From a phage, in sequence record MN525562.1: a DNA stretch of 1,200 nucleotides. One strand, given 5' to 3'. This document shows, in pieces, positions 1-1,200 of this stretch (position 1 is its first letter; each line of letters starts with the position of its first letter). Both the position numbers and the translations under genes were made by a program. Below the pieces are notes generated by a model, which saw only the letters and a program-made list of their open reading frames with translations, was not told where the DNA came from and ran no database searches.

Positions 1-1200
1 ATGCTTAATTATAATGCTCCTATTGATGGTCAGAAATCTTCTATTGATGGTGCTGGTTCTGATCAGATGAATACTTATTATTGGCTTAAAAAAGCTATTA
101 TTCAGTCTCGTAAAGATCAGTATTTTATGCCTCTTGCTAATACTATTAATATGCCTAAAAATTATGGTAAAACTGTTAAAGTTTATGAGTATGTTCCTCT
201 TCTTGATGATAAAAATATTAATGATCAGGGTATTGATGCTAATGGTGCTACTATTGTTAATGGTAATCTTTATGGTTCTTCTCGTGATGTTGGTAATATT
301 ACTTCTAAACTTCCTCTTCTTACTGAGAATGGTGGTCGTGTTAATCGTGTTGGTTTTACTCGTCTTTCTCGTGAGGGTTCTATTCATAAATTTGGTTTTT
401 TTTATGAGTTTACTCAGGAGTCTCTTGATTTTGATTCTGATGATCAGCTTAAAGAGCATCTTTCTCGTGAGCTTATGAATGGTGCTGTTCAGCTTACTGA
501 GGCTGTTCTTCAGAAAGATCTTCTTGCTGCTGCTGGTACTGTTCTTTATGCTGGTGCTGCTACTTCTGATGCTACTATTACTGGTGAGGGTGCTACTCCT
601 TCTGTTGTTTCTTATAAAAATCTTATGCGTCTTGATCAGATTCTTACTGAGAATCGTACTCCTACTCAGACTACTATTATTACTGGTTCTAAACTTACTG
701 ATACTAAAGTTCTTGGTGGTACTCGTGTTATGTATGTTGGTTCTGAGCTTGTTCCTGAGCTTAAAGCTATGAAAGATCTTTTTGGTAATAAAGCTTTTAT
801 TGAGGTTCAGCATTATGCTGATGCTGGTACTCTTATGAATGGTGAGATTGGTTGCATTGATAAATTTCGTATTATTCAGGTTCCTGAGATGCTTCATTGG
901 GCTGGTGCTGGTGCTCAGGTTTCTACTAATCCTGGTTATCGTTCTTCTATGGTTTCTGGTGAGGAGCATTATGATGTTTTTCCTATGCTTGTTGTTGGTG
1001 ATGATTCTTTTTCTACTATTGGTTTTCAGACTGATGGTAAATCTGTTAAATTTTCTATTATGACTAAAATGCCTGGTCGTGAGACTGCTGATCGTAATGA
1101 TCCTTATGGTGAGACTGGTTTTTCTTCTATTAAATGGTATTATGGTATTCTTGTTAAACGTCCTGAGCGTCTTGCTCTTATTAAAACTGTTGCTCCTCTT
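1..1200 (+). CDS. Putative phage major capsid protein (HK97-fold, N4 gp56-like size class suspected); 3'-partial, no stop codon in window; sequence appears synthetically back-translated
   Basis: Seen directly: ATG at 1-3 followed by 399 further sense codons in frame +1 with no stop, in a sequence of roughly mid-30s % GC by eye, where an open frame of this length is very unlikely by chance. Translation: [400 protein letters not shown]. It is globular-looking, has a single Cys, and is rich in Gly/Thr/Ser/Ala/Asp/Asn. Product call is from recollection only: the C-terminal '[10 protein letters not shown]' resembles the 'RPE/RPT + hydrophobic' motif near the C-termini of T7 gp10 (LRPEAAG), P22 coat (TRPEAIG) and HK97 gp5 (YRPTAIIKG). 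Confidence that this is the coding frame is high; confidence in the capsid assignment is about 0.5-0.6. The opposite strand and frames +2/+3 show no credible coding potential. Confidence 0.75.

Follow-up and report, generated by a model that had tools for sequence, protein, structure and literature searches.

The window, that is, the whole stretch of 1,200 nucleotides analysed here, is best read as a deterministic reverse translation of the gp56 protein of Escherichia phage vB_EcoP_G7C, in which a single codon was used for each amino acid and the codons were the most frequent ones of phage phiX174. We put the probability of this reading at about 95%. The preliminary description of this DNA had proposed, from the letters alone, either a reverse translation of a protein or a deliberately recoded synthetic gene. 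This proposal was supported by the identity of the translation with a natural protein at 400 of 400 residues, by 188 differences from the natural gene that are all synonymous, by regeneration of the window at 1200 of 1200 positions, and by the exact DNA not being found in the collections searched.

According to this reading, the source would be the 400-residue gp56 protein record of vB_EcoP_G7C, and each amino acid would have been replaced by one fixed codon, the most frequent one in the phiX174 genes. The tie between TGT and TGC for Cys would have been settled in favor of the alphabetically first codon, and a stop codon would not have been appended. It appears more likely that the sequence was made in silico, either by a script or by back-translation software, than as a physical construct. 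The recoding rule is a textbook one and introduces no new biological feature; the unusual codon usage arose as an artefact from the way in which the sequence was produced. The main feature of the window is as follows.

1..1200, plus strand: complete gp56 coding sequence, recoded, codons 1-400, no stop codon; 20 codons used, 400/400 amino acids identical, 1200/1200 nucleotides reconstructed

Codon usage of the window

Frame +1 of the window was tabulated codon by codon. It consists of 400 codons with no stop, and only 20 distinct codons were observed, one for each amino acid: CTT for Leu (34 occurrences), TCT for Ser (27), CGT for Arg (16), GGT for Gly (38), GCT for Ala (26), ACT for Thr (31), GTT for Val (26), CCT for Pro (15), ATT for Ile (24), AAT for Asn (21), GAT for Asp (26), TAT for Tyr (18), TTT for Phe (15), CAT for His (5), CAG for Gln (15), AAA for Lys (25), GAG for Glu (20), TGC for Cys (1), ATG for Met (14) and TGG for Trp (3). 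The pattern is T-ending throughout, with CAG, AAA, GAG and TGC in addition, and it suggested phiX174 as a possible origin of the table. Frame -1 mirrors frame +1 with 20 distinct codons, and the remaining frames of the window contain 32 and 41. The value of Wright's Nc was 20.0 for the window, which is the theoretical minimum, compared with 35.4 for the natural gp56 gene of G7C.

The preliminary description had listed the same codon table and claimed that one codon per amino acid was used across the window, which was reproduced here both in the codon count (20 in 400) and in the Nc of 20.0. Its claim that a second codon is never used even for Leu, Ser and Arg also held, over the 34, 27 and 16 occurrences counted here. 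The check that it had suggested, a search for any in-frame synonymous alternative codon, was run, and none was present among all 400 codons of the window.

Natural genes gave very different values. In 28 non-overlapping natural blocks of 400 codons taken from the larger G7C genes, 48-61 distinct codons were counted in each, and 51 distinct codons were found in 400 codons of phiX174 gene F, with an Nc of 37.9. The natural gp56 gene of G7C uses 50 distinct codons and that of a 99%-identical relative uses 47. The earlier statement that natural genes always show some synonymous variation thus agrees with the range of 47-61 codons per 400 in natural genes as compared with 20 in the window. When the gp56 protein was encoded by simulation (n = 20,000 for each usage), 39-50 distinct codons were obtained with the natural gp56 usage and 49-60 with the phiX174 usage. 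Use of the top codon at every place had a probability of 10^-67.5 under the gp56 usage and 10^-101.8 under the phiX174 usage, and even a hypothetical preference of 95% for one codon would give only 0.95^383 = 3e-9. The strict usage of 20 codons exceeds both chance and natural bias.

The encoded protein and its natural DNA

The translation of the window is identical at 400 of 400 amino acids to gp56 of Escherichia phage vB_EcoP_G7C (YP_004782186.1), an N4-like phage of the genus Gamaleyavirus in the Schitoviridae. A tblastn search against 50,697 phage records returned 100% identity over residues 1-400 to G7C gp56 (HQ259105.1 / NC_015933.1), and homologues of the capsid protein were detected in about 480 of these phage records. 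An exact look-up of the protein returned no record other than the G7C genome, where the natural DNA encodes it. The gene lies at 54291-55493 on the minus strand of NC_015933.1 and its product is named 'major head protein' in the RefSeq record. Upstream of it lie the portal gene, gp58 and gp57, and downstream gp55 and gp54.

The profile matches are consistent with this name. The translation scored 339 bits with TIGR04387 (N4-gp56 family major capsid protein; curated cutoff 60). Its residues 21-398 aligned to profile positions 7-324 of 324, so that the cutoff of this equivalog model was passed over the full length. It also matched phrog_1357 (major head protein, E = 6.6e-151) and Pfam PF25209 (Phage_capsid_4). 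Solved capsid structures of close relatives are available, namely 9d7z_A (E = 9e-247), 9e99_A, 9d82_A and 9bgn_C. From established knowledge of N4-type capsids, we take the gp56 protein to have an HK97-like fold. The protein encoded by the window is an ordinary, already catalogued capsid protein of the N4 type and adds no new member to the family.

Two annotations were noted among the relatives. In OR067834.1 (Escherichia phage KKP 3715), the major capsid gene at 1001-2203, whose product is identical to G7C gp56 at 397 of 400 residues, carries no annotation beyond 'hypothetical protein', and the same holds for the neighbouring genes of this record. In OY979416.1 (Klebsiella phage vB_Kpl_K57alpha1.2), a capsid protein of 97.8% identity is encoded at 18686-19885 on the minus strand, and the annotation under this match reads 'immunity to superinfection | dCTP deaminase | unknown function', which looks misplaced or assigned to the wrong strand.

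The window was compared with the natural gp56 gene of G7C position by position. The two share 1012 of 1200 nucleotides (84.3%), and the 188 differences are distributed over codon positions 1, 2 and 3 as 5, 3 and 180. As read from the codon tables, positions 1 and 2 changed exactly where AGT or AGC had to become TCT and TTA or TTG had to become CTT. Codons coincide at 218 of 400 places, and the longest stretch of identity spans 26 bases. The window departs from the favourite codon of natural gp56 for nine amino acids; for example, the natural preferences for CTG (25:5), GAC (17:9) and TTC (12:3) were replaced by CTT, GAT and TTT. GGT, CGT, GCT and ACT are strongly preferred in natural gp56. The GC content is 35.9% in the window compared with 46.1% in the natural gene, and T makes up 41.6% of the window overall and 80.5% of its third positions, compared with 43.2% of those in natural gp56. 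The window begins with ATG at 1-3 and ends with CTT (Leu400) at 1198-1200, and its length is exactly three times that of the protein. The TAA that ends the natural gene is absent. Since the window starts at the initiation codon, ends at the last sense codon and lacks the stop, it probably derives from a protein record and not from a slice of a genome.

Several collections were searched for the DNA itself. With megablast against the phage collection, the only matches were natural Gamaleyavirus genes over the full length at 83-85% identity, the best at 85.0%, and Sinorhizobium phage ort11 at 74.8% (records OR067834.1, OP312987.1, MT682708.1 and MN228696.1 among the matches, for window positions 1-1199). 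Neither the 72,556 plasmids nor the 5,426 complete E. coli genomes searched gave a megablast match to the window. A diagnostic 36-mer (positions 955-990 of the window), to which the natural genes show 11 mismatches, was looked for in the viral contigs of IMG/VR, the metagenome contigs of JGI and the GTDB species genomes, and none of them contained it exactly. These results agree with the earlier expectation that no near-identical natural DNA would be found, as nothing above 85% was seen in phages, plasmids or E. coli genomes and the 36-mer was absent from the contigs. The preliminary description had also suggested that TBLASTN or BLASTP with the translation might reveal natural homologues with different DNA. 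The homologues were found, but 'different' applies only in a relative sense, because the BLASTN matches reach 83-85% over the full length. This level is explained by the two thirds of the positions that are fixed by the protein and by the natural gene being rich in T at third positions. A literature search for a G7C gp56 construct or for a back-translation with the phiX174 table found nothing relevant, and this silence neither supports nor refutes a reverse translation.

G7C itself, the true source at 84.3% identity, was missing from the megablast list, probably because it shares no exact word of 28 bases with the window, the longest identical run being 26. Nucleotide matches of back-translated sequences can mislead about the nearest relative.

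Source of the codon table

In order to compare possible sources of the table, fit was defined as the number of degenerate amino acids, out of 18, whose unique top codon is the codon of the window. For phiX174, the 11 annotated CDS of the reference NC_001422.1 were counted. The following values were obtained.

phiX174: 17/18, plus a tie at Cys
alpha3: 17/18, Cys differs
M13: 15/18
G7C genome: 12/18
G4: 10/18
natural gp56: 8/18
E. coli K-12, 27 highly expressed genes (ribosomal, EF-Tu, EF-G, rpoA): 8/18
E. coli, 20 other genes: 7/18

The probability that a random one-codon table reaches 17 unique top codons is 5.9e-9. The tie of phiX174 at Cys is exact, with TGT and TGC used 15:15 when A* is included and 13:13 when it is not. 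When G7C gp56 was back-translated with the top codons of phiX174 and ties were broken alphabetically, the window was regenerated at 1200 of 1200 positions. The opposite choice at Cys, the alphabetically last codon, gave 1199 of 1200. The position concerned is in the only Cys codon.

853..855, plus strand: sole Cys codon TGC, the only C-ending codon in the window; TGT in the natural gene

This TGC matches a tie in the source table that was resolved alphabetically or by the first maximum, and is a small fingerprint of the code that generated the sequence.

Other sources for the table were considered and set aside. A table taken from natural gp56 or from the G7C genome reaches only 8/18 and 12/18, and a table optimised for the E. 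coli host only 8/18 and 7/18. Among T-rich single-stranded DNA phages, G4 (10/18) and M13 (15/18) were rejected as sources. The alpha3 table fails on the single Cys codon only and is disfavoured, though not strongly. Taken together, phiX174 is strongly supported as the origin of the table but is not the sole candidate, since alpha3 misses by one codon and a table with the same 18 preferences would be an alternative. Close relatives of phiX174 such as S13, or further T-rich genomes, could give the same table.

Consequences of the recoding, alternatives and known systems

Several features of the DNA were produced by the recoding. Two homopolymer runs and an open antisense frame were found at the following positions.

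396..403, plus strand: T8 homopolymer (GGT TTT TTT TAT), made by recoding
88-93, plus strand: A6 homopolymer (AAA AAA), made by recoding
1..1200, minus strand: open antisense frame -1, 0 stops in 400 codons; the natural gene has 2 stops

Homopolymers of at least 6 bases do not occur in the natural gene. Frame -1 encodes a pseudo-protein rich in Ile, Ser, Thr, Asn and Lys, and it could be mistaken for an antisense gene. It is open because reverse complementing the 20 codons in use never yields a stop. In frame +2 (2-1198) there are 5 stops, compared with 20 in the natural gene, and Leu makes up 40% of the translation, in which Val, Ile, Phe and Met are also abundant. Its hydrophobic character results from the roughly 80% of codons that end in T, since this T becomes the middle base in frame +2. 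As a side observation, this frame mimics a hydrophobic overlapping ORF. No Rfam families were found in the window, and promoter-like and terminator-like sites occurred there at the frequency expected from shuffled sequences. The view put forward earlier, that the nucleotide-level features have no evolutionary signal and only the protein is informative, agrees with these observations, since the T and GC skew and the properties of frames -1 and +2 all follow from the table. The nucleotide-level properties of the window carry no evolutionary or regulatory meaning.

The homopolymer runs also bear on whether the DNA could be a physically synthesised expression construct. A designed gene might well obey the one-codon rule, as the window does. 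However, the table is unlike that of an E. coli host (8/18 and 7/18), which prefers CTG, CCG, GAA, AAC and ACC, and the window contains no stop codon, tag, cloning site, ribosome binding site or flanks. Synthesis design normally avoids homopolymer runs such as T8 and A6, which were created here by the recoding and are absent from the natural gene, and the plasmid collection gave no match. With a table that is not that of E. coli, no stop or cloning context and the two runs, the sequence makes little sense as a design for expression in E. coli, and we consider such a construct very unlikely.

A gene that was physically built in a codon-compression or recoding experiment, for example an N4-like capsid gene reduced to 20 sense codons, appears a shade more doubtful again. 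If it were real, such a gene would serve to probe how much synonymous freedom a phage can lose. A codon-compressed synthetic phage or genome-recoding project that uses 20 sense codons, or the output of a generative model, is extremely improbable. Strict use of 20 codons is what a maximal compression design would look like, but the codon choice is the simple phiX174 maximum, including the alphabetical tie-break, and nothing suggests tuning to a set of tRNAs. Moreover, the window includes no flanking genome, and no such project was found in the literature. We would not expect a generative model to return a natural protein at 400 of 400 residues under a strictly deterministic codon rule.

The remaining explanation, an extreme codon bias that translational selection or mutation produced in a natural Gamaleyavirus capsid gene, can draw on the high expression of capsid genes and on the fair bias of gp56 itself (Nc 35.4, 43% T at third positions, GGT, CGT, GCT and ACT preferred), but it is effectively refuted by the baselines and probabilities: relatives with 99-100% identical protein use 47-50 codons, all 28 of the 28 natural blocks use at least 48, strict usage has P <= 10^-67, nine amino acids carry a codon that the natural gene does not prefer, an identical protein with 180 one-directional synonymous differences has no evolutionary explanation, and the exact DNA was absent from all collections searched.

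A deterministic reverse translation thus remains the preferred reading, and it matters for data hygiene rather than for biology. A scan that treats the window as genomic DNA would report spurious signals, among them an extreme T skew, a low GC content, an antisense frame open over 400 codons and an almost open +2 frame rich in Leu, Val and Ile, and the 75-85% 'nucleotide homology' to natural phage genes reflects the shared protein only. The check can be reused on similar windows by counting the codons, computing Nc, finding the source protein and regenerating the DNA from a candidate table.

Compared with the natural gp56 gene of G7C, the window has the same 400 residues, the same length and the same ATG start. 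The two differ in the number of codons used (50 in the natural gene, 20 in the window), in GC content (46.1% and 35.9%) and in the terminal TAA, which only the natural gene has. With respect to the N4-gp56 family (TIGR04387; PHROG 1357; PF25209), no difference was observed at the protein level. For phiX174, the top codon is the codon of the window for all 17 amino acids that have a unique top codon, but the phiX174 genes are not themselves limited to one codon per amino acid, and the window shares with them only the table and no sequence homology. In gene design of the kind called 'one amino acid-one codon', all occurrences of an amino acid are written with the single codon that is most abundant for it in a set of reference genes (PMC3056764). 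The window obeys this rule, with the protein unchanged and all DNA differences synonymous, but its reference set fits phiX174 and not an expression host. With neither a stop codon nor a cloning context, it looks less like a completed construct than like a plain back-translation made by computer.
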